From Pseudoalteromonas translucida KMM 520 (GTDB lineage: Bacteria > Pseudomonadota > Gammaproteobacteria > Enterobacterales > Alteromonadaceae), in the NCBI RefSeq assembly GCF_001465295.1, contig NZ_CP011034.1, forward strand, positions 1,320,001 through 1,352,000: DNA of 32,000 nt, given 5' to 3'. Shown here in pieces: positions 1-26,300 of this stretch. The notes beneath the pieces are model-generated. The model ran no database searches. It saw nothing but the letters and a program-made list of their open reading frames with translations, and had not been told where the DNA came from. Made by a program: the position numbers and the translations under genes. The stretch's first letter is position 1, and the number at the start of each line of letters is the position of its first letter.

Positions 1-1
1 G

Positions 2-223
2 AGAACTCGAGCTAAGACAATACTGGTTACGTGGTTAAAAACTATTAACACGGATTATTTTACTATTGGCGACCCTGGTACATTTAACCCATATCAAGCT
101 AATACGTTTCAAAACGTGCCTGTTGGACAGCAGTATAATTACCACGTCTACCATGTTGATGGTGCCGCATCTGAAGAGTTAGCAGACCAATTAGAACAGT
201 ACATTAATTGGGATTGGCCATAA
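2..223 (+). CDS. 3' end of an unidentified CDS (partial, enters from the left edge)
   Basis: Frame 2 is open from the window edge to TAA at 221-223. My translation ends ...DPGTFNPYQANTFQNVPVGQQYNYHVYHVDGAASEELADQLEQYINWDWP*. It is absent from the ORF track because no start codon lies in the window. No family recognised. Confidence 0.4.
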   Translation, partial: RTRAKTILVTWLKTINTDYFTIGDPGTFNPYQANTFQNVPVGQQYNYHVYHVDGAASEELADQLEQYINWDWP

Positions 224-310
224 GCTAGATAGTGTTTTCAGATACAGATTCAATAATTAGCAGTAAAGGTAGCTTCGTGTTTGATTAACATTTAACGAGT
301 GCATTACACC

Positions 311-459
311 AGATTGCAAAGATTGCAGGTATAGCGATAACTGCGCACTATAAAAACAAATAACTCATTGAAAATATTTAAAAATAACCACTGCGCACAT
401 ATAAGTTGCGCAATTACTGCGACATAATGCGCATGAGTGCACCTGCTGCGCACTAAAGC
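311..459. promoter_or_regulatory. Cluster of TGCGCA-core boxes (candidate operator/promoter array) upstream of the accessory cassette
   Basis: CTGCGCAC occurs at 341-348, 391-398 and 446-453 (spacing 50 and 55 bp). Each copy is followed directly by a TA-rich hexamer: TATAAA 349-354, TATAAG 400-405, TAAAGC 454-459. Palindromes TTGCGCAA (406-413), ATGCGCAT (427-434) and GTGCAC (437-442) lie between them. There is a degenerate ACTGCGAC at 416-423 and a tandem AGATTGCA at 311-318 and 320-327. Confidence 0.5.
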
Positions 460-545
460 ATGAAGTGAAAATGACGCTAAGGCAGCGTGTGTTACCCATA
501 AATTAACAGCTATGGACGAAACTGCTAAAAAGGAGAAGGCGAATA

Positions 546-1277
546 ATGGAGAAATTTGGAAGGTGCTTTAAATGGATAACTTTCACTTACGTGATATTAG
601 TTCTGGTCATAATTTTTGCTTACGGTTTTTTTGTTAAAGGAGGTAGCTGGGGCAGTTTAAGTGATGTTGTTATTGCTGTATTTACAGTACTCATTGCTTA
701 TACAACAAACATGCTATTAATTGCTGCTTGGCTTACTAGTAGCTCTTGGTTAGACCAGAGCAAACATAGCTCAGCTCAAGAGCTTCTTTTGTCACTTTCT
801 GAATACTACTTTACTATTCATGAAATTAAGACGATGTATATTGAGAAGAGATTTCTTGAAAGCTTTACCAAAATAACTCCGAATAATTATCATAAGCTCT
901 CCAGCCAAGCGTTAAAGTATTTCGAAGGGACACCTAAAAACGCCACACCAGCTCAACTTGCGCCTTTTTTGGATTTCATATTGCCCACATTTAAAGAGGA
1001 AGCTGAAAAACTAAAGCCTCAAATTTACGCAATTAAGGAAAAATTAAATCAGCTCAAATTTGAAGTTATGACAAAGGCAAGCCCATTCGCAATAGAGATC
1101 GAGCATTTAGATTTTGATTTAATAACAGAGATTAATTTCATGCTAACGATAGATGAAAACATGCACAAAAACGCCAGCCAATTATTTGATAAACTTAGTG
1201 CCGCCACTGGTTATGATGGCTTTAAGTTAATGTATATCGCAGACCCAGTAAAAGACGGGCTATTCAAGGATGCTTGA
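546..1277 (+). CDS. Two-TM membrane protein with a cytoplasmic helical C-terminal domain, unknown family (cassette gene A)
   Basis: AGGAG at 531-535 precedes ATG 546. Two hydrophobic helices are present (WITFTYVILVLVIIFAYGFFV and VVIAVFTVLIAYTTNMLLIAAWL), followed by about 180 aa of polar sequence. The stop overlaps the next start (ATGCTTGA). The gene is AT-rich. Confidence 0.75.
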   Translation: MEKFGRCFKWITFTYVILVLVIIFAYGFFVKGGSWGSLSDVVIAVFTVLIAYTTNMLLIAAWLTSSSWLDQSKHSSAQELLLSLSEYYFTIHEIKTMYIEKRFLESFTKITPNNYHKLSSQALKYFEGTPKNATPAQLAPFLDFILPTFKEEAEKLKPQIYAIKEKLNQLKFEVMTKASPFAIEIEHLDFDLITEINFMLTIDENMHKNASQLFDKLSAATGYDGFKLMYIADPVKDGLFKDA

Positions 1278-1644
1278 TAGTAATTTTAACAAAGCTGATT
1301 TATATCTTGATTTACCTCATGGCGTATCAGGCTTAATTGAGAAAAACAAAAACGCCACTTTCTACGGCATCGCCAGTGGTCGCTCAATGGAAGGTGTTGG
1401 CATATTCGATGGTGATTTACTTATGATTGATAGAAGCTTAAGTGTAGAGCCTGGTGATGTGATCGTTGCTGTACTTAACGGCCAGTATGTTTGCAAAATA
1501 GCAGACCTTAAAAATAACCTGCTTTTATCTGCAAGTGATGAGTACGGCCCTTATAAACTCAAGGAGGGTGACGAGTTTACATTAGAGGGTGTAGTTAGCA
1601 GCTCAGTTCGCATGCATCGTGGAAATATAAAGGATACTATTTAG
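1270..1644 (+). CDS. S24 peptidase, UmuD'-like, with no cleavable N-terminal arm and no HTH domain (cassette gene B)
   Basis: The SGRSM serine motif (S39) and YVCK lysine (K76) are spaced 37 residues apart, as in UmuD S60/K97 and LexA S119/K156. GDLLMIDRS...GDVIVAVLNGQYVCK...LEGVVSSSVRMHR aligns by eye with UmuD DGDLLIVDS...GDIVIAAVDGEFTVKK...VFGVVIHVVKAMR. An in-frame TAA at 1249-1251 rules out a longer N-terminus. Confidence 0.85.
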   Translation: MLDSNFNKADLYLDLPHGVSGLIEKNKNATFYGIASGRSMEGVGIFDGDLLMIDRSLSVEPGDVIVAVLNGQYVCKIADLKNNLLLSASDEYGPYKLKEGDEFTLEGVVSSSVRMHRGNIKDTI

Positions 1645-1645
1645 C

Positions 1646-2521
1646 ATGTGTAATACAGAAAAAAAACCAAAGCACAAGCAAGTTTTTGCTATTGATGAGA
1701 GTGAAGGATTGCACAAGAACTATTCTTTTAGGCTGGCTATATTTCTACCTATTGTGTTTTCGGCCGCAATAATTATTATATTCTCTTTACAGCTATGGAG
1801 CGATGGCGGATTTAGATTGGGATTTTCACAATCAGAAGTGTCAGCATTTATTAAATATTTTTCATTTCCAATATCTTTATTGCCACTTAGCATTGTTTTT
1901 GGCGTTATGGTTGCGAGGTTCCATTCGTCAAAGCAAAAGGCAAAAAGCAACTTGATTACTGAGGTTAACAATTCAGTAAATTTTTTTTACAAAACACATG
2001 AAGAATTTGATAAATATTGTCAGAAATTATTGGCTGTTGAGCATTCTGTATTTAATAATATTGATTCAGTTATATGTTATGGGTTCCTATTTAAAAACAG
2101 CACGACTAAAAACCCATCTTTAATCATCAATGATGAAACAATTCAGCAAATTGAAAAGTTTTACTTTTTATACTTTAACTGCTTTATGGATTATATTTCT
2201 AGCGAGGAATATAGAAATAGAAATGTGAGACTAGAATATGGAGAGGCACATGGATTTGCAGATTATTATGTAAAAAATTTCCAGCTACAACTTGGTATAG
2301 ATATCAATAGAATATTTTTAATTCACTACATAAAAGACTTTGATAAAAACATTAAATCTATAAATAAAGCATTCTTAAAGTTAATTGCCTTCCCAGGGGT
2401 TGATAATTTTATTGAGTCCCATAAGAGGTTATCTTCTATAGAAGATAACATTTTACGCTTGCTAGACGAGAGTGTTGCCTATCAAGTCGAAGTTAAGAGC
2501 TTGCAAACCCCCCAATCCTGA
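1646..2521 (+). CDS. Two-TM membrane protein with a cytoplasmic C-terminal domain, unknown family (cassette gene C)
   Basis: ATG lies 1 nt after the TAG of gene B. TM helices are FRLAIFLPIVFSAAIIIIFSLQLW and FIKYFSFPISLLPLSIVFGVMVARF. The post-TM segment loosely resembles that of gene A. The gene is very AT-rich. Confidence 0.75.
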   Translation: MCNTEKKPKHKQVFAIDESEGLHKNYSFRLAIFLPIVFSAAIIIIFSLQLWSDGGFRLGFSQSEVSAFIKYFSFPISLLPLSIVFGVMVARFHSSKQKAKSNLITEVNNSVNFFYKTHEEFDKYCQKLLAVEHSVFNNIDSVICYGFLFKNSTTKNPSLIINDETIQQIEKFYFLYFNCFMDYISSEEYRNRNVRLEYGEAHGFADYYVKNFQLQLGIDINRIFLIHYIKDFDKNIKSINKAFLKLIAFPGVDNFIESHKRLSSIEDNILRLLDESVAYQVEVKSLQTPQS

Positions 2522-2543
2522 TATAGTATTTCCCATGTTGAAG

Positions 2544-2581
2544 AAATCCGCTTAGTTTATGACTGAGCGGATTTTTGTTTT
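2544..2581 (+). terminator. Intrinsic terminator closing the A-B-C operon
   Basis: AAATCCGCT (2544-2552) pairs with AGCGGATTT (2566-2574). The stem extends inward by TAGT/ACTG with one G-T pair, leaving a 5-nt loop. TTTTTGTTTT follows. It starts 23 nt after the gene C stop. Confidence 0.75.
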
Positions 2582-2594
2582 AAAAGGACGTAAA

Positions 2595-3380
2595 ATGAAC
2601 AACCAAAATGATAGCAGTACATTAGACTTATTTCGAGAGCGATTAGCTAGCCCGTTTCTATTCACTTTTTTTTGGGTATCGTGTACTTGGAACTGGAAAT
2701 TGATTTATTGGTTTTTATATGAACCACTAAAGCCAAGCATAAAACTTGTACGCTTACCTTTTGAGTGGGAAGTGCTGACTCCTGTTTTAATTACAGTTGC
2801 GGTTATAAGTGTTGTTCCGTGGCTCAATAATGCGGTAGAGATAATAAAACAATTTGCAGAACATCAGTTAAACCTTTGGCTTAATAAGCTGAACTGGAAA
2901 AAAATGGTTACTGAAGCTCAATACCAAAAGTTGGTCGATGAGGTTGCACAGTTAAAGGAGAAGCAGCACCAGCTCGTCAACGATAACATTAAAGCTCAAG
3001 AAAGTGAGATTCAAGCGAAGAAGGAGTTACTTTCTTCGCAAGCGGAAGTTAATTTAAATTTAAAAAAGCTATCTGACCTAGAAAGAGAAAAAACAGCTCT
3101 TTCCACTAAATTATTTGAGGTGGAGAAATGTAGGGCGGTGTTAGGCGATGAATTAGGCCCATTGAAAAAGAAGGTGGAAGAAATAGAAAAAGTGATTAGA
3201 GATAGCATGGGGGAGCTATCTGAGCTGGAGTTTGACTCAAGTGACAGATCATACGCCTGGCTTAATCAACTTACTAAAAGATATAAATATATTATTAGTA
3301 TAATAGATGAAAAAGAAGCTAAATGGCGCTTCAATCAGGCTATATATGAATTAGAGAAAAAGAAAATCAATAATAAATAA
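2595..3380 (+). CDS. Two-TM membrane protein with a long C-terminal coiled coil, unknown family (cassette gene D)
   Basis: AAGGA at 2584-2588 lies 6 nt before ATG 2595. The track start at 2559 sits in the terminator loop. TM helices are FLFTFFWVSCTWNWKLIYWFLY and VLTPVLITVAVISVVPWL. About 110 aa of heptad-like E/K/L/Q-rich sequence follows. Confidence 0.7.
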   Translation: MNNQNDSSTLDLFRERLASPFLFTFFWVSCTWNWKLIYWFLYEPLKPSIKLVRLPFEWEVLTPVLITVAVISVVPWLNNAVEIIKQFAEHQLNLWLNKLNWKKMVTEAQYQKLVDEVAQLKEKQHQLVNDNIKAQESEIQAKKELLSSQAEVNLNLKKLSDLEREKTALSTKLFEVEKCRAVLGDELGPLKKKVEEIEKVIRDSMGELSELEFDSSDRSYAWLNQLTKRYKYIISIIDEKEAKWRFNQAIYELEKKKINNK

Positions 3381-3450
3381 ACTATCTACTTTATTTTATA
3401 GCGCTTATTGCTAATATTTCAACAAGTTAGGTGTTTTACGCCTAGCTAGA

Positions 3451-3476
3451 AAAGCCCGCTTAACTGCGGGCTTTTT
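3451..3476 (+). terminator. Intrinsic terminator after gene D
   Basis: AAAGCCCGC (3451-3459), loop TTAACT, GCGGGCTTT (3466-3474), T-run to 3476. Confidence 0.75.
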
Positions 3477-3524
3477 CGTATGCGCACAATGGTAAGGTTT
3501 TATTAGCCATTTTATTCCTTAGTT

Positions 3525-3554
3525 AAGCCCAGCCCTCACCGGTTGGGCTTTTTT
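3525..3554 (+). terminator. Second tandem intrinsic terminator just upstream of the lysis genes
   Basis: AAGCCCAGCC (3525-3534) pairs with GGTTGGGCTT (3541-3550), with one G-T pair and loop CTCACC. T-run 3549-3554. Confidence 0.7.
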
Positions 3555-3584
3555 ATGCGCGAAACAAATTTATAGGTGGGCGTT

Positions 3585-3935
3585 ATGACAAGCGATAAAG
3601 AAATGTGTAAAGACTTTGAAGATAGCGGGGCGGTGTTTCCAAAAGTTACGCCTGAGCGTATTGAAGAGCTAATGCAGCAGGTTCGATACATTCCGTCATT
3701 AGTAGAGGGGACTACAACAACGCTTGTTGTTAGCGTTCTACCAATTGGGCTAACAGAGTTTACTTTAGCCACCACCACAATGGCATGTGTAGATAAGCGC
3801 AATTTTAATGCTGAAAAGGGCGTTAAGTATTGTATTGAGAAATGCGAAAAAGAAACGCGCAATAAACTGTGGGAGCTTGAGGGTTACGCTTTATCGCAAT
3901 TCATTCAGGCCGGTCATTATGATTATAAAAGCTAA
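3585..3935 (+). CDS. Phage N4 gp49 / Sf6 gp66 family protein
   Basis: AGGTGG at 3574-3579 precedes ATG 3585; the track start at GTG 3576 has no RBS. The pattern VTPERIEEL...TTTTLVVSVLPIGLTEF...ACVDKRNFNAEKGVKYC...KLWELEGYAL matches my recollection of the Pfam Phage_gp49_66 family. Confidence 0.7.
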   Translation: MTSDKEMCKDFEDSGAVFPKVTPERIEELMQQVRYIPSLVEGTTTTLVVSVLPIGLTEFTLATTTMACVDKRNFNAEKGVKYCIEKCEKETRNKLWELEGYALSQFIQAGHYDYKS

Positions 3936-4413
3936 AAGCCTAATCGCGCTTGGACTGACAGGTGTTCTTGCTGCGGTTGGTGTAACGGTTGCTAACTTTG
4001 AAGGTAAAGAGCTGGTTGGTTATGTTGACCCTGTTGGCATTGAAACAGCTTGCTTTGGGCATACTGCTACAGCTATCGCAGGTAAGGAATATACAGAGCA
4101 TGAATGCTTAAATCTGTTTGCGCAGGACTTAGCTGAACATGACGAGCAGTTAAACCATGCTGTATTGGTCCCGCTCACTCGCGGTGAGCACATGGCTTAT
4201 TTATCATTTCATTACAATGTAGGTGCCGGGAACTTTAGGCGCAGCACATTATTAAAATATCTAAACGAAAATCAACGCTTACGAGCGTGTGATGAATTAA
4301 CTCGCTGGGTTTATGCCAATGGGCGCAAGCTTACGGGGCTTGTTAAGCGCAGAGAGCAAGAACGCACAATGTGTCTAGAAGGAGTTAGTAGTAATGTTGA
4401 AATTTCTAGGTAG
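3919..4413 (+). CDS. SAR-type endolysin, GH24 (T4/P21 lysozyme-like)
   Basis: FEGKELVGYVDPVGIETACFGHT carries the canonical E-x8-D-x5-T catalytic triad. The N-terminus MIIKAKSLIALGLTGVLAAVGVTVA is a Gly/Ala-rich weakly hydrophobic helix typical of signal-arrest-release domains. ATG 3919 overlaps the stop of the upstream gene. The track start at 3808 would overlap that gene by 128 nt. Confidence 0.85.
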   Translation: MIIKAKSLIALGLTGVLAAVGVTVANFEGKELVGYVDPVGIETACFGHTATAIAGKEYTEHECLNLFAQDLAEHDEQLNHAVLVPLTRGEHMAYLSFHYNVGAGNFRRSTLLKYLNENQRLRACDELTRWVYANGRKLTGLVKRREQERTMCLEGVSSNVEISR

Positions 4414-4900
4414 CGTAGAGCGAGTTATTATAGCTGCGTTAATAGTCACGATACTGGCGCTTACTTACTCAGCGAACAACCTCAGAAAAAAGTCTATAAC
4501 AGATGGTCAAGCACTCGAAAATTTAGAGTTGGCTTTAGATAAAGCTGCGCAGACAAACAAATATTTAAGCCAAAGCGTAAAGCTATCAGAGCAGAGCAAC
4601 GCAAAACTACTGAAAGAGCGTAAATCACTTGAGGCCATTAATGCCCAACACAGTGATGAGCTTGCATTGCTCAACTCACAAATAAACATCGCACAAGAAA
4701 ACATTCAAAAACTAAGGGGTTCAAATGACAGCACAATTAAAGCCTGGGCTAATCATTGCGTGCCTGATTATGCTATCAGCTTGCTCAAGTACGCGGAGCC
4801 CCAAAGTTGTAACAGAAACAATAGTACAAACACAGTACAAGTACCTACTGCCGCCAGCGGTGTTTTACCAGGCGTGCGAAGTGGCAAAATCAAATTCTAA
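4394..4900 (+). CDS. i-spanin (Rz-like)
   Basis: GGAG at 4381-4384. There is one N-terminal TM (VIIAALIVTILALTYSA) followed by a periplasmic coiled coil. The start overlaps the endolysin stop. A lipoprotein gene begins in a different reading frame inside its 3' end. Confidence 0.8.
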   Translation: MLKFLGSVERVIIAALIVTILALTYSANNLRKKSITDGQALENLELALDKAAQTNKYLSQSVKLSEQSNAKLLKERKSLEAINAQHSDELALLNSQINIAQENIQKLRGSNDSTIKAWANHCVPDYAISLLKYAEPQSCNRNNSTNTVQVPTAASGVLPGVRSGKIKF

Positions 4901-5012
4901 TGTTAGCGATACCGCTAGCTTATTAGCTTACACACGCTACCTGGAGTCTTTGATAGATACTTGCAATGAAAATACTAAACGAATTAAACAATGGGCATTG
5001 GACAATGGATAA
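4725..5012 (+). CDS. o-spanin lipoprotein (Rz1-like), overlapped architecture
   Basis: AAGGGG RBS. The signal peptide ends in the lipobox L-S-A-C (Cys20). The gene starts inside the i-spanin in another frame and runs 112 nt past its stop. Confidence 0.8.
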   Translation: MTAQLKPGLIIACLIMLSACSSTRSPKVVTETIVQTQYKYLLPPAVFYQACEVAKSNSNVSDTASLLAYTRYLESLIDTCNENTKRIKQWALDNG

Positions 5013-5295
5013 GCAAACAACAGTGTATAGCTACACTGCAAGCATCGGCACTGCTGCTGGCGGTCTTATGTCATTGAATACTTTAGCCCTGTTGTTAGGA
5101 ATAGTCTTTACAGCCGCAACGTTTTTCATTAACTGGCGCAGTCAAAAGCACCGCCTTGAGATTGAGCTGCAAAAACGCAAAGAAGATGCTGAATTTCATC
5201 GTGCGCGCATGGCAAAACTGTCGGGCGATGATGTAAACCATTACAACAAGCGGGTAATGAAGGATGATCGCCGGTGTCAAAATGGGCCGATTTAA
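5005..5295 (+). CDS. Holin, two TMDs (possibly a pinholin)
   Basis: ATG 5005 overlaps the o-spanin stop (ATGGATAA). TMD1 ASIGTAAGGLMSL is Gly/Ala-rich and TMD2 is LALLLGIVFTAATFFINW. The C-terminal tail is highly charged. The track start at 4966 is less likely. Confidence 0.65.
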   Translation: MDKQTTVYSYTASIGTAAGGLMSLNTLALLLGIVFTAATFFINWRSQKHRLEIELQKRKEDAEFHRARMAKLSGDDVNHYNKRVMKDDRRCQNGPI

Positions 5296-5981
5296 ACGAG
5301 CTGTTTTTAAAGGAGCATGCTGAAAAGGGTATCGGGCCTCTTGAGTTTTGCGAAAGCAATGGCCTGAATTACGCCACCGCCAGGCGATATATAAAACTAC
5401 CGCAAGCGAATTTAAAGAATGCCCCTAAACAGCGCAAGACTAAAGACGGTAAAAAAAGACCTGGCGTTAAGCCTGGTACCAGAAACCGAAGCATAGTTAA
5501 GCATGGTGGTTACTCAAAGTATTTTGAAAACAATATTAATCAACTTGTCGAAGGTACAACACTTGAAGATGAGCTAGACCTTTGCCGCGCTCGCATTCAC
5601 ATGGTTATGGATGCTATTGAGGGTATTCAAAAGCTTTTAGATAACCCTGAAACAGACAATGATGCAAAAACACGACTTTATGAGTCGCTATTTAAAGCTG
5701 AAATGTCGCTTGATAGAAACGTTTGCAGAGCTGAGTCGATAACTAAAACATTATCGAGCATTAAAACAGACTCGCTTGCACGCGGTAAATTGATTGCTGA
5801 AACATCACGAATTACACAGCAGACCAAAGCACTGGTTCATTCTACTAAGCGCGGCAAGCACCAGGCAGAAATTTCAGAGCATGAAGCGATTAAAGCACGC
5901 AAAGAAGCAGGCGGTACCAGTAAGCTTGATGATTATATTGATAAACGTACTGGCGGTTTAGATACCGTGGTTAGTCAATAA
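5274..5981 (+). CDS. Terminase small subunit
   Basis: GTG start with GAAGGA upstream. The N-terminus is HTH-like (LEFCESNGLNYATARRYIK), followed by a basic linker and a helical oligomerisation-like region. It lies immediately upstream of, and overlaps, the large terminase. Confidence 0.75.
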   Translation: MSKWADLNELFLKEHAEKGIGPLEFCESNGLNYATARRYIKLPQANLKNAPKQRKTKDGKKRPGVKPGTRNRSIVKHGGYSKYFENNINQLVEGTTLEDELDLCRARIHMVMDAIEGIQKLLDNPETDNDAKTRLYESLFKAEMSLDRNVCRAESITKTLSSIKTDSLARGKLIAETSRITQQTKALVHSTKRGKHQAEISEHEAIKARKEAGGTSKLDDYIDKRTGGLDTVVSQ

Positions 5982-7714
5982 TGCAGCCTAAAACAGCTAA
6001 ATACCCCAAAAGCACGTGGCTTACGCAAGAAGAGCGCTTTAATTTAGATGAAGCTGAGTTGTTTGAACGCTGCGACCCATACCTAGATTGTTGGTGGTGG
6101 CGCATAAACAACTTATACATCATTGCTAACGAAAAGGGCCAAGAGGTTTTGTTTCGTTGCCGTATAGCGCAAACCGTATTGTTTATGACGATGTGGTTTT
6201 TAAACATTATCTTAAAAGCGCGGCAATTGGGCTTCAGTACAGCAATACAGGTTTTTATCCTGGACCATGCCATGTTTAACGATAACAGGCAGTGCGGGGT
6301 AATTGCTCAGGGTAAAGACGAAGCGGGCGCTATATTCTCGTCAAAGATACTTTACCCCTACGAACGGCTACCGAATTTCTTAAAGACGGGCAAGCGCTCA
6401 GTTAAAAGCAAGACGGGTACCGGGATTAAATTTAACAATGATTCGTGGATAAGGGTTGCAGTATCGTTTCGTTCGGGAACGCTGCAGGTTTTACACGTAT
6501 CAGAATACGGCAAGATATGCGCTAACTACCCATTGCGGGCAGATGAAGTGCAATCGGGCTCGTTTAACGCCGTACATGAGGACTCTTACATATTTGTAGA
6601 GTCAACAGCCGAAGGCGCAACCGGCAATTTCTTTGATATGTCAGTCGATGCGATGGAGCTATTAGCGTCCGGGATTGATTTATCACAGCAAGATTTTAAG
6701 TTTCACTTTTACCCTTGGTTTGATGATCCTAAGTATGTAGCCCCGGTACCACCAGGCGGCCTAAAACTTTCAAAGGAAAAAGTTAAATACTTTGCGTCAG
6801 TTGAAGCGGCAAACGGCGCAACGCTAACAGACGAGCAAATTAGCTGGTACATAGGCAAAGAGCGTAACCAAAAAGGCAAGATGAAGCAGGAATATCCATC
6901 TACACCGATGGAGGCTTTTTTAACGTCGGGCCGTAAAGTATTTGATAGCGATGATTTAATGCGTGCCGAAGGGCGATGCGTTAAGCCATTAATTGTTTAT
7001 GACATTGAGCCATACACCGGCAAGCTTAAAAAAATGAACGGTAAAGTTGATTTAAGCGTAAGAGGCGGCGACAAACTTGCTCAGTCAACGCTTGGGTACC
7101 TACTTATTTGGGAATTACCCGACGATAACGAAGATTATGCGATCGGCGGCGATGTTGCAGAAGGACTTGAACATGGCGATCGCAGCTCATTAGACGTTGT
7201 TGCCAGTTCAGACGGGCGACAGGTAGCGCATTGGTTTGGTCATATAGACCCTAAGCGGTTTGCACATATAAATAAGCATATCGGATTAATGTATAACAAG
7301 GCTTATATCGGCATTGAGCGAAACAATCACGGTCATGCAACACTTCAAGAGCTTGTTGATATTTACCCAACGAGCCGGATTTACACGGAAGAGCACATTG
7401 ATCGTGAAGATACGGACGAAGAAACCCGCAAAGTAGGCTGGAATACAACTGCGCAATCAAAGCCAATTTTAACGAGTGGCCTTGATGAGCTGCTTACTCA
7501 CGACAAAGACGGCATTGTTTGGCGCGGCACAGTTAATGAACTCAATACATTTGTTTACGATAAAAAAGGCCGCATGGGCGCACAGCCTGGCGGGTTTGAT
7601 GATCAGGTGATGAGCTATGCAATTGCGCAAGAAATGCGAGTAAGAATGCCTAAGCGGCTAATTAAAGACAATACACCAGCACCCCATAACCCTAACTCTT
7701 GGATGGCACGATAA
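5981..7714 (+). CDS. Terminase large subunit
   Basis: 577 aa. It has the ILKARQLGFST motif typical of the Terminase_6-type ATPase N-domain, and a C-terminal nuclease-like FDDQVMSYAIA. Its position is between TerS and the portal. Confidence 0.9.
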   Translation: MQPKTAKYPKSTWLTQEERFNLDEAELFERCDPYLDCWWWRINNLYIIANEKGQEVLFRCRIAQTVLFMTMWFLNIILKARQLGFSTAIQVFILDHAMFNDNRQCGVIAQGKDEAGAIFSSKILYPYERLPNFLKTGKRSVKSKTGTGIKFNNDSWIRVAVSFRSGTLQVLHVSEYGKICANYPLRADEVQSGSFNAVHEDSYIFVESTAEGATGNFFDMSVDAMELLASGIDLSQQDFKFHFYPWFDDPKYVAPVPPGGLKLSKEKVKYFASVEAANGATLTDEQISWYIGKERNQKGKMKQEYPSTPMEAFLTSGRKVFDSDDLMRAEGRCVKPLIVYDIEPYTGKLKKMNGKVDLSVRGGDKLAQSTLGYLLIWELPDDNEDYAIGGDVAEGLEHGDRSSLDVVASSDGRQVAHWFGHIDPKRFAHINKHIGLMYNKAYIGIERNNHGHATLQELVDIYPTSRIYTEEHIDREDTDEETRKVGWNTTAQSKPILTSGLDELLTHDKDGIVWRGTVNELNTFVYDKKGRMGAQPGGFDDQVMSYAIAQEMRVRMPKRLIKDNTPAPHNPNSWMAR

Positions 7715-7717
7715 CAG

Positions 7718-9814
7718 ATGGCTGATCACGTAAAATCAAATAAAGACGGCTTTACGCTAGATAAGCTGTTAACCCTGCTTGGCGATATTGACAGCCAACC
7801 CGATTGGCGCACGCCAGCAACTAAAGCGTGTGCGTACTATGACGGCGACCAATTAAGCGAAGCGGTAAGAAAAGTATTACGCGATCGCGGACAGCCCGAA
7901 ATAGTGCACAACATGATTGGGCCAACTATTGATGGTGTATTAGGCCTTGAAGCCCGATCACGTTCAGATCTAATGATTGTTGCCGATGATGAAAACGGTG
8001 ATGAATTAGCGAAAGCATTAAATGAAAAGTTTAAAGACGCCTGGCGTTTATCTCATGCTGATCGTGCTTGCTCGGATGCTTACGCTAGCCAGTTAAAAGC
8101 GGGCATTGGTTGGGTAGAAGTTACTAAAAATCCAATACCTTTTGCAGCAGCTTACCGCGTTAAGTTTATTCACCGTCGCGAAGTGTGGTGGGACTGGAAC
8201 GCACAAGAAGCCGATCGCAGTGATGCACGTTGGATGCTGCGTAAAAAATGGCTAGACCTGGACGAAGCCCTTACTACTTTTCCGGACCACAAAGAAATTT
8301 TAAAGAACTCAGTTAATTTGTGGGAAGATTTTTACAAGACGGTAGATAAAAAGCACGTAGAAGAGCATGGATTACACTCCGCTTGGCACGATAGCCAAAG
8401 CTGGACACGCGGACAAAGCGAATGGCTGGACCAAACTCGCAACCGTGTATTGCTGCAAGTTATTTACTACAAAGTATGGAAGCGCGCGCACATCATTAAA
8501 ATGAGCGATGGCCGTGTTATTGAATACGATAAAAATAACGATATTCACCAGGCTGCGGTACAAAGCGGCAAGGTTACTCTTGAATACGCTGCATTCCCTA
8601 ACGTGCGTGAAGCGTGGTTTGTTGGCCCGCATAGGATTATTGATAGACCAAGTGAAGCGCCTGGCGGCATGTATAACCTAATACCTTTCATTGGCTATCA
8701 AAAAGATGCAAGCGGTGAACCTTATGGACTGATCAGTCGCATGGTACCGGCACAAGATGGCATTAACGCACGCGTTATACGTCTTAACTACTTACTACAA
8801 GCACGACGAGTAATAGCCGATGATGATGCGACGCAGTTAAGTAACGACCGATTAAAAGAAGAAATCGAAAAGCCGGACGGGTACATACCACTTAACCCGG
8901 ACCGTAAAAGCAAGTTAAAGGCGTCAGATGCGTTAAGCATTCAAAACGATGTAGGCATTGCGGCGCAGCAGTTTAACTTAATGCAAAATGATATGAAGCT
9001 TATCCAGGACACAGCCGGCGTTTATAACTCGATGCTAGGCCAGGACAGCAACGCAGTAAGTGGTGTAGCCATTGCAAACTTGGTTGAGCAAGGCACAACA
9101 ACGCTTGCTGAGCTTAATGATAACTTTCACTTTTCACGTAACCGCGTAGGCGACTTGCTACTGGCTTTCATCATTGAAGAGTTAAAGCCGCAAAACAACG
9201 TGCAAGTAACCGCTAATCGCGACGATAAAGCGAAGCGTAAGCAGATTGTACTTAACCAGCCAAATGAAAGTGGCAAGCGTGATAACGATGTAGCGCGCTG
9301 GAAAGGTCACTTAGCGTTAGCACCGGTTAAAGCAACACCAACGTATCGACAGCAGCAAGCAACGCTACTAAGCAATGTAATGAGCCAGATACCGCCAGAA
9401 GCACAAGCAGCAACTATGCCTATGTTTGTTGAATTGATGGACCTACCAAACAAAGAAGAGTTTTTAGCAACACTACGCCAGGCGTTAAACATTCCTAAGC
9501 CGCAAGAGGATATGAACGAAGATGAACTTGCACAAGCTCAAGCCCAGGCTGAAAAAGCACAGGCGATGGAAGAGCTACAAATGCAAGAGATCCAAGGCAA
9601 TATGGAAAAGTTAGCCCTTGAGCGCGAACAGCTAAAAGTCAAAATACTTGAATTACAGAAGAAAACTGAAACAGAAGAAGTTAAAGACGACAAGTTGATA
9701 GCTGAAACTGAAAAGATTTTAAGTGAAGTGCGCCGTAGTAACGCTGAAATAGCAGCTATGAAGTCAAACGTACAAGCGAACATTCAACAACAACTAGACG
9801 CGATACAGGTGTAG
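7718..9814 (+). CDS. Portal protein with a C-terminal coiled-coil extension
   Basis: 698 aa, starting 3 nt after the TerL stop. The last ~100 aa are E/Q/A/K-rich and heptad-like. Called from position and size; no motif recalled. Confidence 0.8.
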   Translation: MADHVKSNKDGFTLDKLLTLLGDIDSQPDWRTPATKACAYYDGDQLSEAVRKVLRDRGQPEIVHNMIGPTIDGVLGLEARSRSDLMIVADDENGDELAKALNEKFKDAWRLSHADRACSDAYASQLKAGIGWVEVTKNPIPFAAAYRVKFIHRREVWWDWNAQEADRSDARWMLRKKWLDLDEALTTFPDHKEILKNSVNLWEDFYKTVDKKHVEEHGLHSAWHDSQSWTRGQSEWLDQTRNRVLLQVIYYKVWKRAHIIKMSDGRVIEYDKNNDIHQAAVQSGKVTLEYAAFPNVREAWFVGPHRIIDRPSEAPGGMYNLIPFIGYQKDASGEPYGLISRMVPAQDGINARVIRLNYLLQARRVIADDDATQLSNDRLKEEIEKPDGYIPLNPDRKSKLKASDALSIQNDVGIAAQQFNLMQNDMKLIQDTAGVYNSMLGQDSNAVSGVAIANLVEQGTTTLAELNDNFHFSRNRVGDLLLAFIIEELKPQNNVQVTANRDDKAKRKQIVLNQPNESGKRDNDVARWKGHLALAPVKATPTYRQQQATLLSNVMSQIPPEAQAATMPMFVELMDLPNKEEFLATLRQALNIPKPQEDMNEDELAQAQAQAEKAQAMEELQMQEIQGNMEKLALEREQLKVKILELQKKTETEEVKDDKLIAETEKILSEVRRSNAEIAAMKSNVQANIQQQLDAIQV

Positions 9815-20313: not shown

Positions 20314-23300
20314 ATGGCTAAGTTAACAAAAGGTGGCTTTTCGGGTATTGCTCGAAAGGCAAAGCAAAGCCAATCAGAAGGCGCGATCACAGAGAACATT
20401 GAAATATTAACCGGGCAACGTGGTAGTGGTGAAAACCGCGCGCTATTAGTTAAGGACCTGGTTAACTTAGATGATATGAAACGCAATGCGCTAATCAATA
20501 GCGCAAAGGGTGGCAACAATAGCGGTGGCTTACCCATTGTTGTAGGTGGTATTCAGCGCCCGCACGCACCAGTAAACCTTAGCGCTACCGGCGGCTTTAC
20601 GTTTATAGCACTAACCTGGGACCGCCCAACTTATCGAGGTCACGCTTACGCTGAAATTTGGCGCAGCGAAACAGACGCGTACAACACAGCTACGCTTATA
20701 GCTACCGAAGTGGCGGACGTATTTAGCGACTCAGTAAACATGGGTGCTGAATTTTACTATTGGGTTCGCTTTGTAAACGTTGCTGATATGAAAGGCCCTA
20801 CGCAGGGCGCAAAAGGTATCTATGCTAAAACTGTTGAGTCTGCGGCGTCTATACTTGATGAAATAGGCGGGAAAATTGAAGGCTCGCACCTGGGGGATTT
20901 CCTAACGTCTGAAATAGGGAAGATACCGGAAATAGATTTTACTTTAAACGAAGTGATCACGGTTGAGATACCGAAATTAAAAGTAGACGTTGATAGCTTT
21001 GGAGCCGACGCCGACCAACTGCGCATTGACGCTGACTCATTACGCGTTGATGTTGATAGTAACCTTGCAGCAATACCCCCGCTTAAGCTTGATGTTGATA
21101 AAATAAAGCTGACTGAAATACCAAAATTAAAGACTGACATTGATCAGCTAAATGTAGATGTTCCTGCATTAAGGGCGGACGTTGATAAAAACCTGGTAGA
21201 TATTCCAGCGTTAAGAATAGACGTTGATAAAAACCTGCTAGAAATACCGGACATTAAAAGCGATGTTAGTGCGATAAATGTTGAGATACCAGCTATTCGC
21301 CAGGACTTAATAGACTTAACTGGCGAATCAGCAGAAATCAAAGCTATTGCAGATACAGCAAAACAAAGAGTTGAATCGGTAGAAGCAAGCAGCGAAACTT
21401 TAGCTAGGCAGCTAATTGAAAGCGCGTCGGTAAATGATACCAATTGGCAAAGCAATACGACAAAGCTAATAGCGTTTGAATCGTCTTTAGAAAATGTGAA
21501 TGCCCGTATTGAGTCTGATTTTTTAACTAAAACAGAAGCAAACGAAGCGATAGCCGCCGCGTCACAAACCATACGCACTGAAATAGAAGAGTCGGGCTTA
21601 GCGCTATCTGGTGATATAGAGAGTACCTATTACACTAAAACAACTACAGATCAGGCAATTGCTCAAGCGACCCAGGATATAAAGGCGCAAATTGAAGATC
21701 CATTGGGTAGCAGTGTTGGCGCTCAACTTAAATCGCAGCATTACACTAAAGTCGATGCGGACAGCGCGATTAGCTTTTCAGCAGAGCAGCTAAAATCAGC
21801 AATAGAGAACCCGGCGGGTACCAGCCTGGGCGCATTAATAAACAACGACTATTACACAAGCATTGCTACAGATAGCGCCATTGCGGCTTATGGCTTGCAA
21901 CTAAAAAGCGATATTGAAAACCCGGAAGGCGATAGTATAGGGGCCTCACTTAAAACCGATTACTACACTAAAACCGATACGGATAGCGCAATAAGCCAGG
22001 CGACTACGCTATTAAGCTCAGAAATTACCGGCGCAACCGATCAGATAGATACAATAAATGCCACACTTACAAGCGATTATTATACAAGTGCGGAAGCGGA
22101 TCAGGCGGTATCAGCAGCGACGCAGCTTTTAAAATCTGAAATAGAAAACCCGTTAGGCTCAAGTGTTGGCGCAACTTTATTTAATAACTACTCGACTACC
22201 ACAACTACAAATGAGGCTATAAGCCAGGCGACGACTGAGCTTAAATCAACCTTGGATGGTGACATTGGCGCGATAAGTGCGGACCTGGGCAGCAATTACT
22301 ACACCATAGCCAGCACAGACAGCGCAATAAGCCAGGCGACACAGTTATTAAAATCAGCAATTGAGGACCCGCTAGGCACTAGCATTGGTGCGACTTTGGC
22401 TACTGAATATTCTACTACGGTAGATATAGACCAAGCTATTAGTGAAGCAACTACGCAGCTGAACTCGAACATTGATAGTGCCGAAGCAGATATTTACCAA
22501 AACGTATATACGAAAGTTGAGGCAGATACCGCCATATCAGGAAGTGTAACTGCGCTCAGATCTGAATTAAGCAAGGTTATCGAGGATGGCGACACCGCTT
22601 TATTCCAGGACTTTAGTGCGGACCTGCAAACTAACTACTACACAAAAACACAAGCGGACGGCGCGATAAGCTCGGCTACAACGGCTTTAAAATCAGCGCT
22701 TGATAGTGATATAGGTAATGTAACTACTGAGCTACAAGATAACTACCTTACAAAAGTAGGCACCAACTCAGCCATTAGCCAGGCTACGCAGCTTTTAAAA
22801 TCTGAGATTGAAGATCCAGAGGGCAACAGCCTGGGCGCTACGCTTTTTACCGACTACTCAACTAAGACAGAAGTTAACCTGGCAATTAGTGAAGCGACCA
22901 CACAGCTAAACACTAACCTAGATAACCTGCAGTCTGATGTATATAACAACTTTTACACCAAAACGGATGCGGATAGCAGCATAGCCGGTAGCGTTACCGC
23001 GCTTAGATCTGAGCTTATGCAGGTTATTGATGATGGCAATAGCGACGCCGTTCAATCCATCGAAGCCGACCTGCAAACTAACTACTACACCAATGTAGCA
23101 ACAGATAGCGCTATCAGTGAGGCGACAACCTTACTAAAGACAACTATTGAAGATCCGCAAGGGGATAGCCTGGGTGCTGAACTGTTTAATCGGTACTACA
23201 CCAAAACAGACACCGACGGCGCATTGGCTGAACTTAATACGCAGCTAAGGGCAGAGTACCAACCACTAAGCGAAGCGGTTATTGAAAACGCCCTTGCCAA

Positions 23301-26300
23301 TGATGAGGCAAACAACAAGCAGCTAAAATTTGCAGCAGAGATAATATCGCAACAGAAAACCTTTGTTGATGATCAGGGCGCGCTTGCTGAGTCTATTTTT
23401 GCGCTACGTTCTGAATTTGGCGACAGCCAGGCAGAGCTATATACCTTGAAAGAAACGTATGCTGGCAACGTGCTAGCAACTGCGAAGGAGTTTAACAAAC
23501 TAGAGTCAAGCATAGGCGACGTATCAGCAACGCTATTAAATAGCTATGACACATCGGCCACGACAACAGAAGCGATAGCTAATGCGGTTTTGGCCCTTAA
23601 ATCTGAAATAGAAGATCCTGCAGGGGATAGTGTAGCCGCCAACCTACAGGTGAACTACTACACCAAAACTGATACTGATAACGCACTAAGCGAGCTAACC
23701 ACGCAGTTAAACGCAAGCGTCACCGGTTTATCAGCTGAAATTTATGAAAACATTTATACTAAGGTCGATGCGGACAGCGCTATAAGCTCGGCTGTTACTG
23801 CGCTTCGCTCAGACGTTGATAGTGATATAGGCGAACTTAGTGCAGGAATAGAGCAAAACTACTACACCAAAACGGATGCGGACAGCGCAATAGCACAGGC
23901 TAACCAACTGCTAAAATCGGCTATTGAAGATCCGGAAGGTAGTAGCCTGGGCGCAACCTTGTTTAATGCTTACTACACAAGCACTCAAGCAGATAGCGCG
24001 ATAAGTGAGGCCACAACGGCCCTTAAATCTGTTTTAGATAGTGACATAGGTAGCGTTACTGCGGACTTGCAAAACAATCACTCTACTACAGCGCAAACAA
24101 ATCTCGCCATTTCAGAAGCGACCCAGCAGTTAAAAAGTGCTATTGAAGATCCCGCCGGCGACAGTTTAGCGGCGGATATTTACACTAACTTTTCAACCAA
24201 GGCTGATACAACTAGCGCCATTAGTGAAGCGACAACAGCGCTAAAATCTACACTCGATGGCGATATAGGTGCGGTTTCGTCCGACTTGCAGACTAACTAT
24301 TTAACTAGCACGCAAACAGATGAAGCCATTAGCCAAGCGAATACCTTATTAAAATCGACAATAGACGATGATATAAGCTCAGTAGCCGCAGACCTACAAA
24401 CTAACTACCTAACAAGCACGCAATCTAACCAGGCGATAAGCGAAGCTACTACAGCGCTTAAATCTGTTTTAGACGGCGATATAGGAAGTGTTGCGGCGGA
24501 CTTGCAGAACAACCACTCTACGACAGCAGAAACAAATTTAGCTATATCCCAGGCAACCCAGCAACTTAAAAGCGCAATCGAAGATCCTGCCGGAGATAGC
24601 TTAGCGGCAGATATTTACACCAATTTCTCAACCAAGACAGATACAACCAGCGCAATAAGCCAAGCAACTACGGCACTAAAATCTACACTTGATGGCGAAA
24701 TTGGCACAGTAGCATCGGATTTGCAGACTAACTACTACACGAAAACTAACACTGACAGCGCCATTAGCCAGGCGACTACGGCGTTAAAATCTACGCTGGA
24801 CGGCGATATAGGTGCGGTAGCCTCAGACTTACAGACTAATTATTTAACCAGCACGCAAACGGATCAGGCAATAAGCCAGGCAACCACAACATTAAAATCC
24901 ACACTGGATGGTGATATTGGCGAGGTGGCCGCAGATCTGCAAAACAACTATCGCACAGAGACAGATACCGATACGGCAATCAGCCAGGCAACAACTGTTT
25001 TAAAAAGTGAGATTGAAGATCCGGAAGGCAACAGCCTGGGCGCTACGTTATTTAATGACTTTCAAACTAAGGTGGATGCGGACAAATCAACGGCAACGAC
25101 TAACCAGCAACTTAGGGCAGAGTTTGAGCCAAGCGCACAAGCGGTAATTGAAAACGCATTAGCGAATGACCTGGGGCAAGGCAGAAGAGCGCTAGCCGAG
25201 GCTGATATAATCAACAAGCAAACTGTTTTTGCTAATGAGCAAGAAGCACTAGCCGAATCCATTACCCTGCTAAATACGTCGATTGACGAAAGTAACTCAA
25301 ACCTTTACCAGCTACAAAAGACTTTTGCCAGCAAGACGCAGGCAACCGCACAGGATTTATTAAAGCTCGATAGCAGTGTTGGCGATGTTAAGGCTGATTT
25401 AGTAAATAACTACTTCACTAGCGCAGACGTTAACGAGGCAATAGCCAGTGCAGATATGGCTTTGCGTGCTGCCATAAAAGGCGGCGACGATGAAGCTTTA
25501 GAGACTGTAACGGCAGAGCTACAAACCAATTATTATACAAAGGCATCGGCAGATAGCGCCATTGCAGAAGCGACGACGCAACTTAAAAGCGCCATTGAGG
25601 ACCCTAACGGATCAAGTGTTGGTGCTGATTTATACGTTAACTATTCAACAACTACTGAAACAGGCTTAGCTATAAGCTCAGCTGTTACCGGGCTAAAGTC
25701 TACAATTGATACTGATATTGGCAACTTAAGCGCTGGATTGTCGCAGAATTACTACACAAAAACCGATACAGATAGTGCAATAAGCCAGGCTACTACAGCT
25801 TTAAAGTCAACACTTGATGGCGATATTGGCGACTTGAATGCGGTTTTGCAGACGGACTATTACACTAAGGTAGCCACGGATAGCGCGATTAGCTCAGCAG
25901 TAACCACCTTAAAGTCTACGCTGGATAGTGATATAGGAAGTTTGGGCGCAGTATTGCAGGCAAACTACTACACTAAAACAGCGGCGGATAGTGCGCTTAG
26001 CTCAGCAGTAACTAATCTAGGCTCTAAAATTGACACTGATATAGGCGTTGTTAATTCAGGGCTGCAAACAAATTACTACACTAAAACAGCAACAGATAGC
26101 GCCATTAGCTCAGCAGTAACTACGCTTGAATCAAGTGTGGGTGATGATATTGGCGACTTAAGCGCGGTACTACAGGCCAACTACTACACGAAAACAAACA
26201 CTGACGGCGCAATTAGTAGCGCCAGCCAGGTGCTAAAAGCCGCTATTGAGGACAAAAACGGTAACAGTGTGGGTGCCAGCCTGCAAACACTTGGCGAAAC

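Follow-up and report, generated by a model that had tools for sequence, protein, structure and literature searches.

Are the four small genes found between positions 546 and 3380 of a prophage of Pseudoalteromonas translucida KMM 520 the parts of one system, or do they lie side by side as separate passengers? The window analyzed here, 32,000 nucleotides of contig NZ_CP011034.1 (positions 1,320,001 to 1,352,000), is a P22-like prophage of this species. Genes A, C, and D of the window each encode a protein with two transmembrane (TM) helices, and gene B, located between A and C, encodes a stand-alone S24 Ser/Lys peptidase. The original prediction saw in this 2TM-S24-2TM arrangement a possible protease-gated membrane effector. 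We consider instead that 546-3380 is a mosaic of accessory cargo, lodged in a recombination hotspot of a lambdoid, P22-like Pseudoalteromonas prophage and made up of independent membrane proteins and an autonomous B, a reading to which we give about an even chance. The three-gene system is thereby replaced by an alternative, independent cargo, that can be tested.

Does the Triad Travel as a Unit?

Genes A, B, and C form one translationally coupled operon, which extends from a repeat-rich regulatory region to the hairpin of a conserved element of ~80 bp (Table 1). The open reading frames (ORFs) of all four genes were confirmed, and their coordinates bear out the coupling that had been predicted, as A overlaps B by 8 nt (1270-1277) and C begins after B has ended with only one base, 1645, in between. 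The cargo had also been described as foreign looking, poor in G+C, and placed upstream of the lysis genes. This is indeed the case: the G+C content is 29-38% over 501-3500 (500-nt windows) against 41-52% across the remaining window, and the prophage slot is confirmed.

The idea that the triad is a conserved unit is not supported by gene neighborhoods, among them those of 46 viral contigs with relatives of B. A-B-C recurs, with gene order and coupling unchanged, in the P22-like Pseudoalteromonas prophages L001 and L002, yet its components are also found apart. B and C occur without A in two loci (L003 and L004), B occurs without A or C in L018-L029, L054, and L068-L072, and, although an A-family gene is followed by B in eleven loci, a relative of A occurs without B in L095. 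Close homologs of B (68-82% identity) occupy the same slot and have unrelated genes directly downstream, 0-10 nt away. At least seven unrelated gene sets are found in this position, and once (L025) there is nothing. The downstream partners are the C family, a family of 292-312 amino acids (aa) with two to three TM helices, a 325-aa protein (167 + 146 aa in one locus), a 160-aa protein with one TM helix, a 243-aa protein with two, a soluble 108-aa protein (L018, L023, and L068-L070), and a set of three proteins of 350, 268, and 208 aa (L071). In the identity matrix, B proteins that are 94-97% identical to each other have different partners, so that partners are exchanged without co-variation with the lineage of B. 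Homologs with ~64% identity are solo genes, both in the immunity module of the P2-like Pseudoalteromonas phages ACA1, ACA2, and C5a and in L033-L037. In conclusion, each of A, B, and C exists without the others, and their joint occurrence as a triad is just one combination out of many.

The Conserved Element and the Cargo Hotspot

The ~80-bp element at the right of the operon (2500-2581) is 90-96% identical in all related loci, against 67-79% for the flanking genes. Besides the window, it is carried by L001-L003, L018-L029, L054, L068-L072, and L077-L100. Its left edge is sharp, at CTTGCAAACCCCCC, it contains an invariant TGATATA, and its right end consists of a hairpin and a T-run. The strong intrinsic terminator that had been announced after C is this hairpin, with a 16-bp stem at 2542-2576, a U-run, and a folding free energy (dG) of -21 kcal/mol (z -5 to -7). 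The first 22 nt of the element encode the last residues of C, LQTPQS*. The same tail is common to the C family and to an unrelated 312-aa protein of L027, and the last cargo gene of L095 ends in LQTPQD*. Because these shared tails are encoded by the element, they mark the right-hand recombination junction.

A search of viral contigs with an 18-nt core of the element returned 25 contigs, including 12 new ones. The element lies directly 3' of the 186/191-aa gene that occupies the Q position in L099 and L093, and in L099, L077, and L082 there is no B and the lysis genes come next after the element. The related prophage L102 has the order CI, Cro, CII-like, O, P, NinB, further genes, the 186-aa gene, cargo, element, lysis, terminase, and P22 portal. 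A-B-C is inserted between the Q-position gene, which encodes a Cys-rich protein of 186 aa, and the element, and D follows just after the element. The 186-aa protein gives weak Cys-rich or zinc-finger-like matches, and no match to a Q family or to the PDB. The element is thus found between the Q-position gene and the lysis genes and has an intrinsic terminator, as would be the case for a lambdoid PR'-tR'. The A-B-C operon ends at it, and it is probably the phage's late promoter/terminator (PR'-tR'-like). By analogy, the place taken by D would be the one known in lambdoid phages as the "stx position."

Slots for cargo near Q/PR' are a classic finding, and 2TM effectors are already known. What is new here is that the hotspot and its boundary element are defined, together with a cyclase-less family related to the 2TM effectors of the cyclic-oligonucleotide-based antiphage signaling system (CBASS). 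A hotspot with a sharp right boundary can be searched for directly through the ~80-bp element and is a source of candidate exclusion or defense genes.

Relatives carry other cargo in the hotspot, of defense or regulatory type. It includes NACHT-domain proteins (in L071 and L072), an NA37 nucleoid-associated protein, and a weakly HEPN-like protein of 133 aa, and is located at L071 1998-3698, L072 1-1511, L068 721-1815, and L002 3427-3828. Searches of the alternative cargo and of the hotspot neighbors against Pfam and PADLOC returned nothing significant, the best weak match of a cargo gene being PDC-S46 (1.2e-4).

Table 1. Features of the cassette and of its immediate surroundings, in coordinates of the window
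Feature	Position	Strand	Description
Candidate operator/regulatory region	341-455		TGCGCA / CTGCGCAC(T/A) repeat cluster ahead of the operon
Gene A	546-1277	+	Inner-membrane protein of 243 aa from an orphan family; two TM helices at the N-terminus, then a long juxtamembrane helix and a cytoplasmic domain of helices
Gene B	1270-1644	+	124-aa stand-alone S24 Ser/Lys peptidase, UmuD'-like, without a cleavable N-terminal arm
Gene C	1646-2521	+	291-aa inner-membrane protein with an N-terminal membrane module of ~160 residues and a private alpha/beta C-terminal domain
~80-bp ultra-conserved element	about 2500-2585	+	CTTGCAAACCCCCCAATCCTGATATAGT (extended -10-like TGaTATAgT), 16-bp hairpin, T-run
Gene D	2595-3380 (probable start; ORF opens at 2559)	+	261-aa protein with an aromatic-rich 2TM hairpin and a cytoplasmic coiled coil
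Terminator-like hairpin after D	3449-3476	+	AAAAGCCCGC-loop-GCGGGCTTTTT; dG -22 kcal/mol for 3435-3485, z -3.3
Second terminator-like hairpin	3525-3560	+	Precedes the lysis cassette; in relatives conserved directly after the ~80-bp element
Lysis cassette (context)	3576-5295	+	gp49/66-family gene, phage lysozyme, Rz-like and Rz1-like spanins, holin

Gene B Encodes a Stand-Alone UmuD'-Like Peptidase

The sequence of B matches PTRA_a1447 of P. translucida KMM 520 with 100% identity. Its membership in S24 is clear (50.7 bits against a cut-off of 23.3 for Pfam PF00717, Peptidase_S24; E = 1.7e-13), and it matches both PHROG 811, "UmuD-like" (8.5e-27), and the UmuD' structures 1I4V, 1AY9, and 1UMU of the PDB (~1e-11). 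UmuD models are ranked above LexA and CI models. The NCBIfam cut-offs are nonetheless not reached, either for UmuD (NF007621, 73.5 vs 110 bits) or for HumD (NF051876, 21.9 vs 120). The dyad formed by Ser39 (SGRSM) and Lys76 (VCKI) is invariant across 26 homologs, and its motifs align with SGDSM and TVKK in the catalytic region of Escherichia coli UmuD. On this point the prediction is confirmed: B stands alone, is UmuD'-like, and has kept the S24 dyad intact.

In the same alignment, residue 18 of B corresponds to residue 39 of UmuD, which places the start of B at about UmuD residue 22, near the start of processed UmuD'. No Cys/Ala-Gly cleavage site was found in B, either in the alignment with UmuD or among the homologs. 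Hence, B can be regarded as "pre-processed." No umuC was found beside B, the downstream neighbor being C, a 2TM protein. The clade of B comprises more than 110 clusters at 90% identity, nearly all of 121-126 aa. Among the longer homologs, P0127 and P0133 (135-137 aa) keep a CG or AG site. Distant homologs (45-53% identity, 135 aa, some with CG/AG) precede an overlapping gene for a 419-aa Y-family polymerase, which is the canonical umuDC arrangement, and B therefore looks like a captured umuD' that lost its umuC. Stand-alone S24 proteins have been noted before in Pseudoalteromonas phages (PMC10612066). What is new here is the size of the clade, a large set of UmuD'-like proteins from marine phages that are truncated by nature.

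A role in repressor cleavage is suggested by ACA1 gp4, which is 64% identical to residues 28-117 of B and is annotated as an "SOS sensing protease." B would then be a trans-acting "SOS-sensing" protease for repressors (its own CI, the CI of a rival prophage, or the host LexA), and A, C, and D would be unrelated cargo. Kim and Little reportedly observed in 1993 that isolated C-terminal domains of LexA and CI cleave full-length repressors in trans. As for gp4 of ACA1 and ACA2, it has been proposed to associate with an immunity repressor that lacks an autoproteolytic domain of its own (PMC10612066). However, the CI of the related L102 (213 aa, HTH_3) has its own Peptidase_S24 domain, so that a split sensor is not needed, and the "split repressor" role considered for B after the example of ACA1 gp4 is weakened accordingly. 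In addition, B is far from the immunity region, it scores best with UmuD rather than with LexA or CI models, and the scan for a LexA box upstream of A gave chance-level matches only. Such a repressor protease seems to us quite unlikely.

Gene C and the 2TM_IV Effector Family

The N-terminal ~160 residues of C contain a cytoplasmic IDExxGLHKN motif, the two TM helices, and a juxtamembrane RFHSSKQKA...NN..N.FY.THEEF. C has no assignment in Pfam or NCBIfam, and its family proper consists of 20 clusters. The profile of this family finds 474 clusters at 50% identity (E ≤ 1e-3), of which 58 at E ≤ 1e-10. The members of this superfamily are mostly of 270-350 aa, match across the N-terminal ~160 residues, and share the motif P...LS...GV.V.RFH.SKQ...NN.F.NY..H..F; no Pfam family was found for them. 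Among 60 remote relatives, 18 match the PADLOC model 2TM_IV (PDLC02912, best 9.2e-14), which we take, from the naming in PADLOC and DefenseFinder, to represent the two-TM effector of CBASS type IV. One group of relatives, that of P0160, has eight of nine members matching 2TM_IV (best 2e-8), and in P0160 the match spans the TM and juxtamembrane region. Aligned to this group with hhalign, the C family gives a probability of 99.9% (E = 6.9e-36) over 157 columns, corresponding to residues 7-168 of C. These alignments indicate that the membrane module of C and the proteins matching 2TM_IV are members of one superfamily, which fits the role of a membrane effector. No named defense system of PADLOC-DB v2 is matched significantly by A-D themselves (no match for A and B, noise at E > 0.03 for C and D).

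The remainder of C is of a different nature. When its AlphaFold2 (AF2) model was compared with the PDB and BFVD by Foldseek, nothing was found below E 0.1, and the C-terminal domain has no recognized fold. A conserved TM module followed by a variable C-terminal domain, as in C and likewise in A, is the pattern expected of an effector joined to a private sensor.

Distant relatives of C (27-35% identity, in the N-terminal half) are single genes at other prophage or island positions, without S24 (L006-L017). The scan of metagenomes for the C superfamily gave four loci, and the two that were inspected (L073 and L074) have no S24 neighbor; the corresponding scan of viral sequences gave no loci. A membrane module related to CBASS type IV effectors is in wide circulation, in single genes that lack a cyclase and add a private C-terminal domain of their own. 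Provided that these single-gene relatives are active, such modules can be switched over to direct sensing. On a Pseudoalteromonas plasmid or chromid (L010 and L011, 4600-12400), distant C-like genes are found amid surroundings that resemble a defense island, flanked by a 1055-aa protein and by a 698-aa ATPase-like protein with partners of 150 and 308 aa.

Genes A and D

The family of A has 14 clusters at 90% identity, and all the named ones are from Pseudoalteromonas. Conservation is found in its N-terminal 2TM part (VKGGSWGS...IAYTT), in contrast to a C-terminal domain that varies or is swapped. No match to A was found in Pfam, NCBIfam, PADLOC, or PHROG. In the AF2 models of A and C the cytoplasmic domains are confident (predicted local distance difference test, pLDDT, ~90), and the A model has no Foldseek hit in the PDB below E 0.1. 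It had been stated that only B has a recognizable fold, and this agrees with the lack of a Pfam or NCBIfam assignment for A, C, and D and of a Foldseek match for A and C. A common architecture had also been proposed for A, C, and D. Two hydrophobic helices are indeed predicted in each of the three, with AF2 helices that concur for A and C, but A and C are not detectably homologous: their juxtamembrane motifs are similar, and the hhalign probability of 1.3% led us to reject them as paralogs.

D matches phrog_4780, a family of unknown function (1.4e-9), and nothing in Pfam, NCBIfam, or PADLOC. The gene had been credited with its own ribosome-binding site and terminator. A ribosome-binding site (AAGGA) and two terminator-like hairpins (3449-3476 and 3525-3550) are present, but the start is to be revised. 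It is probably ATG 2595, Met13 of the ORF, rather than ATG 2559, because the latter is inside the terminator stem and the homologs begin at the equivalent of Met13. Homologs of D in L068 and L069 (63-65% identity), L054 (46%), and L028 (34%) invariably come just after the ~80-bp element, and none was found in viral contigs outside the same hotspot loci. D is separate cargo, in an insertion slot that differs from that of A-B-C, with the conserved element in between. In relatives, the slot of D is filled by a family of 2TM proteins of 184-210 aa with a juxtamembrane GLRHNEKQ motif (L001 6997-7551, L003 7000-7557, L027 7446-8000, L031 5144-5701, and L018 2153-2785).

The location of these genes immediately upstream of those for endolysin, spanins, and holin suggests another role, in which the membrane proteins would be accessories of lysis timing or entry block, i.e., antiholins or holin modulators, or blockers of injection of the SieA/Imm type. 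Holin regulators and Sie proteins are typically small, with two TM helices and a cytoplasmic domain. The best candidates would be D and the 184-aa 2TM family, as they are always downstream of the promoter-like element and are presumably transcribed late. Against this, A, C, and D match no holin, antiholin, or Sie family in Pfam and PHROGs, a complete lysis cassette is present, the minimal relatives L099 and L077 lyse without these genes, and the module of C is linked to a defense effector family. We hold a function in lysis timing or entry block to be rather improbable.

Independent Cargo or a Shared Switch

Several observations weigh against independent cargo, against the effector role of C, or against the late promoter. 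The tight coupling, with the overlap of A and the 0-10 nt that precede each downstream cargo gene, is equally expected of a multi-protein system. The close family of C (≥40% identity) is seen only directly after B, and in about three-quarters of cases the gene that directly follows B encodes a TM protein, an enrichment that might be functional. As to C, the protein itself has no match to 2TM_IV in PADLOC even at E ≤ 1, the effector analogy concerns only the membrane module, whose homology is transitive, and a cyclase is missing: A-D match no model of a cGAS/DncV-like nucleotidyltransferase (CD-NTase) in PADLOC or Pfam, and the operon consists of A, B, and C only. Finally, the promoter role of the element is a prediction for which the consensus scan makes no call, TGATATA being invariant and the -35 weak, and no homology to known Q proteins could be detected in the 186-aa protein.

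In a generalized form of the original prediction, B would be the common regulatory subunit of a modular prophage defense. A pre-activated UmuD'-like peptidase would sense RecA* on single-stranded DNA, or some other cue of infection, and would cleave, bind, or release an interchangeable membrane effector, such as C, the 292-312-aa family, or the 325-aa protein, with the result that the cell is killed or depolarized. B is in fact the most conserved gene of the cassette (66-95% identity, vs lows of 30-46% for A and C), its catalytic dyad does not vary, and the partners that start 0-10 nt after its stop, or overlap it, would be obligately coupled to it in expression. Most partners are TM proteins, in excess directly after B, and C has a TM module with relatives in a CBASS effector family. 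Defense systems such as CBASS, retrons, and Thoeris are usually built in this way, from a core that is conserved and effectors that can be swapped. One finds, however, B without partner (L025) or with the soluble 108-aa partner, homologs with ~64% identity that are solo, and relatives of C and one of A that have no S24 neighbor. Nor was a conserved Ala/Cys-Gly site seen in the families of A or C, PADLOC has no match for B or for the set, and partner exchange does not co-vary with the lineage of B. A common regulatory subunit is hence unlikely in our view. The more specific proposal of B as the shared sensor or switch of a new family of modular prophage defenses, tethered by co-translation to membrane effectors that include a cyclase-less relative of the CBASS 2TM proteins and setting them free by trans-cleavage or binding upon the appearance of RecA* filaments or a phage cue, is a little more doubtful still. 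If true, it would connect Ser/Lys proteases of the SOS type directly with abortive infection by membrane disruption.

Under the reading of independent cargo that we prefer, A, C, D, and B would act largely independently of one another. In C, and by analogy in A and D, the conserved 2TM hairpin would be the effector part and the fast-evolving cytoplasmic domain the sensor or regulatory part. At a late stage of infection, or when a superinfecting phage provides the cue, the membrane proteins may oligomerize and compromise the membrane or block entry, the outcome being abortive infection or superinfection exclusion. B would be an autonomous, pre-processed analog of UmuD', of the kind of P1 HumD, acting on RecA*, UmuC, or repressor-type targets and not on its neighbors. 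The 3' end of B and the ~80-bp element would be the conserved anchors between which cargo is swapped, with cargo genes carrying a ribosome-binding site that overlaps the last codons of B, and B would adjoin membrane genes because it provides one of these anchors. In this scheme we infer the membrane disruption, its cue, the target of B, and the promoter activity of the element.

Regulatory Region and Other Features of the Window

Ahead of the operon, the region at 341-455 holds three direct copies of CTGCGCAC, spaced by 50 and 55 nt, and two more TGCGCA palindromes. These repeats make it a putative operator or regulatory region. Part of it and of the adjoining sequence (380-464) recurs with 94% identity in L002, ahead of the gene that opens the equivalent operon. 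Other lineages of B have other repeats in the same place, CGGAACA seven times in L019, L020, and L095 and GACCGAT/GGTCTAT in L025 (L019 5650-5930; L025 1000-1170; L095, reoriented, 3290-3470). Iterated repeats that differ between lineages may be the binding sites of lineage-specific regulators. A scan for consensus sigma-70 promoters upstream of A made no call.

In most loci with B, the operon opens with a gene for a conserved protein of ~60 aa (MQQKLTNIKVQPVGF...AYKLRALADKIE), which either overlaps the start of A or precedes B (e.g., L027 5691-5879, L068 3819-4004, and L001 3498-3686). This gene is absent from the window.

In the lysis cassette, the gp49/66-family ORF (3576-3935, with GTG start 3576) overlaps the longest lysozyme ORF (3808-4413, with ATG 3808) by 128 nt in a different frame. 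The true lysozyme start is probably further downstream, since the Pfam domain begins only at residue 63. Further away, in the tail/injection region of the prophage, 20314-27462 is a single ORF of 2382 aa, whose sole Pfam matches, PurS (1.1e-6) and Nol11_C (3.8e-4), are short, partial, and spurious looking. Positions 1-8000 of the window (by megablast) and the D protein have no match among GenBank phages, and a search of Rfam over 1-6000 returned sub-threshold noise only.

Comparison with Known Systems

B resembles UmuD' and the HumD protein of P1 in its S24 fold, its Ser/Lys dyad, and its length, which is approximately that of processed UmuD'. A further common trait is that its gene is carried by a temperate phage and has no umuC beside it, and its best matches are UmuD models and UmuD' structures. 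It differs from them in scoring below the UmuD and HumD cut-offs of NCBIfam and in being part of a translationally coupled operon with membrane proteins. The gp4 proteins of ACA1, ACA2, and C5a are in the same clade of stand-alone S24 proteins of ~121-126 aa from Pseudoalteromonas phages, and their function has been hypothesized only. The setting is different: gp4 stands by itself in the immunity module of phages that are P2-like and have a repressor without an S24 domain (PMC10612066). B is located between the Q-position and lysis genes, in a P22-like prophage, and CI is complete in the relatives of this prophage.

The CBASS 2TM_IV effectors are the closest known counterparts of C. Their similarity lies in the N-terminal 2TM and juxtamembrane module, of the same superfamily as the proteins that match the model, in a comparable size (~270-300 aa), and in the succession of an N-terminal TM hairpin and a C-terminal soluble domain. 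The differences are that C has no direct match to the model, that its operon has no CD-NTase or other CBASS gene, that its C-terminal domain has no recognized fold, and that its relatives are single genes in prophage cargo slots.

Comparison with RexAB of lambda and SieA or SieB of P22 is one of functional analogy only, since no similarity of sequence or fold was detected with Pfam, PADLOC, PHROG, NCBIfam, or Foldseek. Like these, A, C, and D would be AT-rich accessory membrane proteins of a prophage, dispensable for phage growth and with a plausible site of action at the inner membrane.

At the level of the locus, the counterpart is the Q-PR'-tR' region of lambdoid phages and its moron slot, which holds stx in Stx phages. 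The 186-aa gene has no homology to the Q families, most cargo lies here upstream of the element rather than downstream, and both promoter activity and antitermination are predictions. The resemblance concerns the organization of the region: a short conserved element, with a -10-like motif immediately followed by a strong terminator, directly follows the last of the early genes and precedes those for lysis, and cargo is inserted around it.

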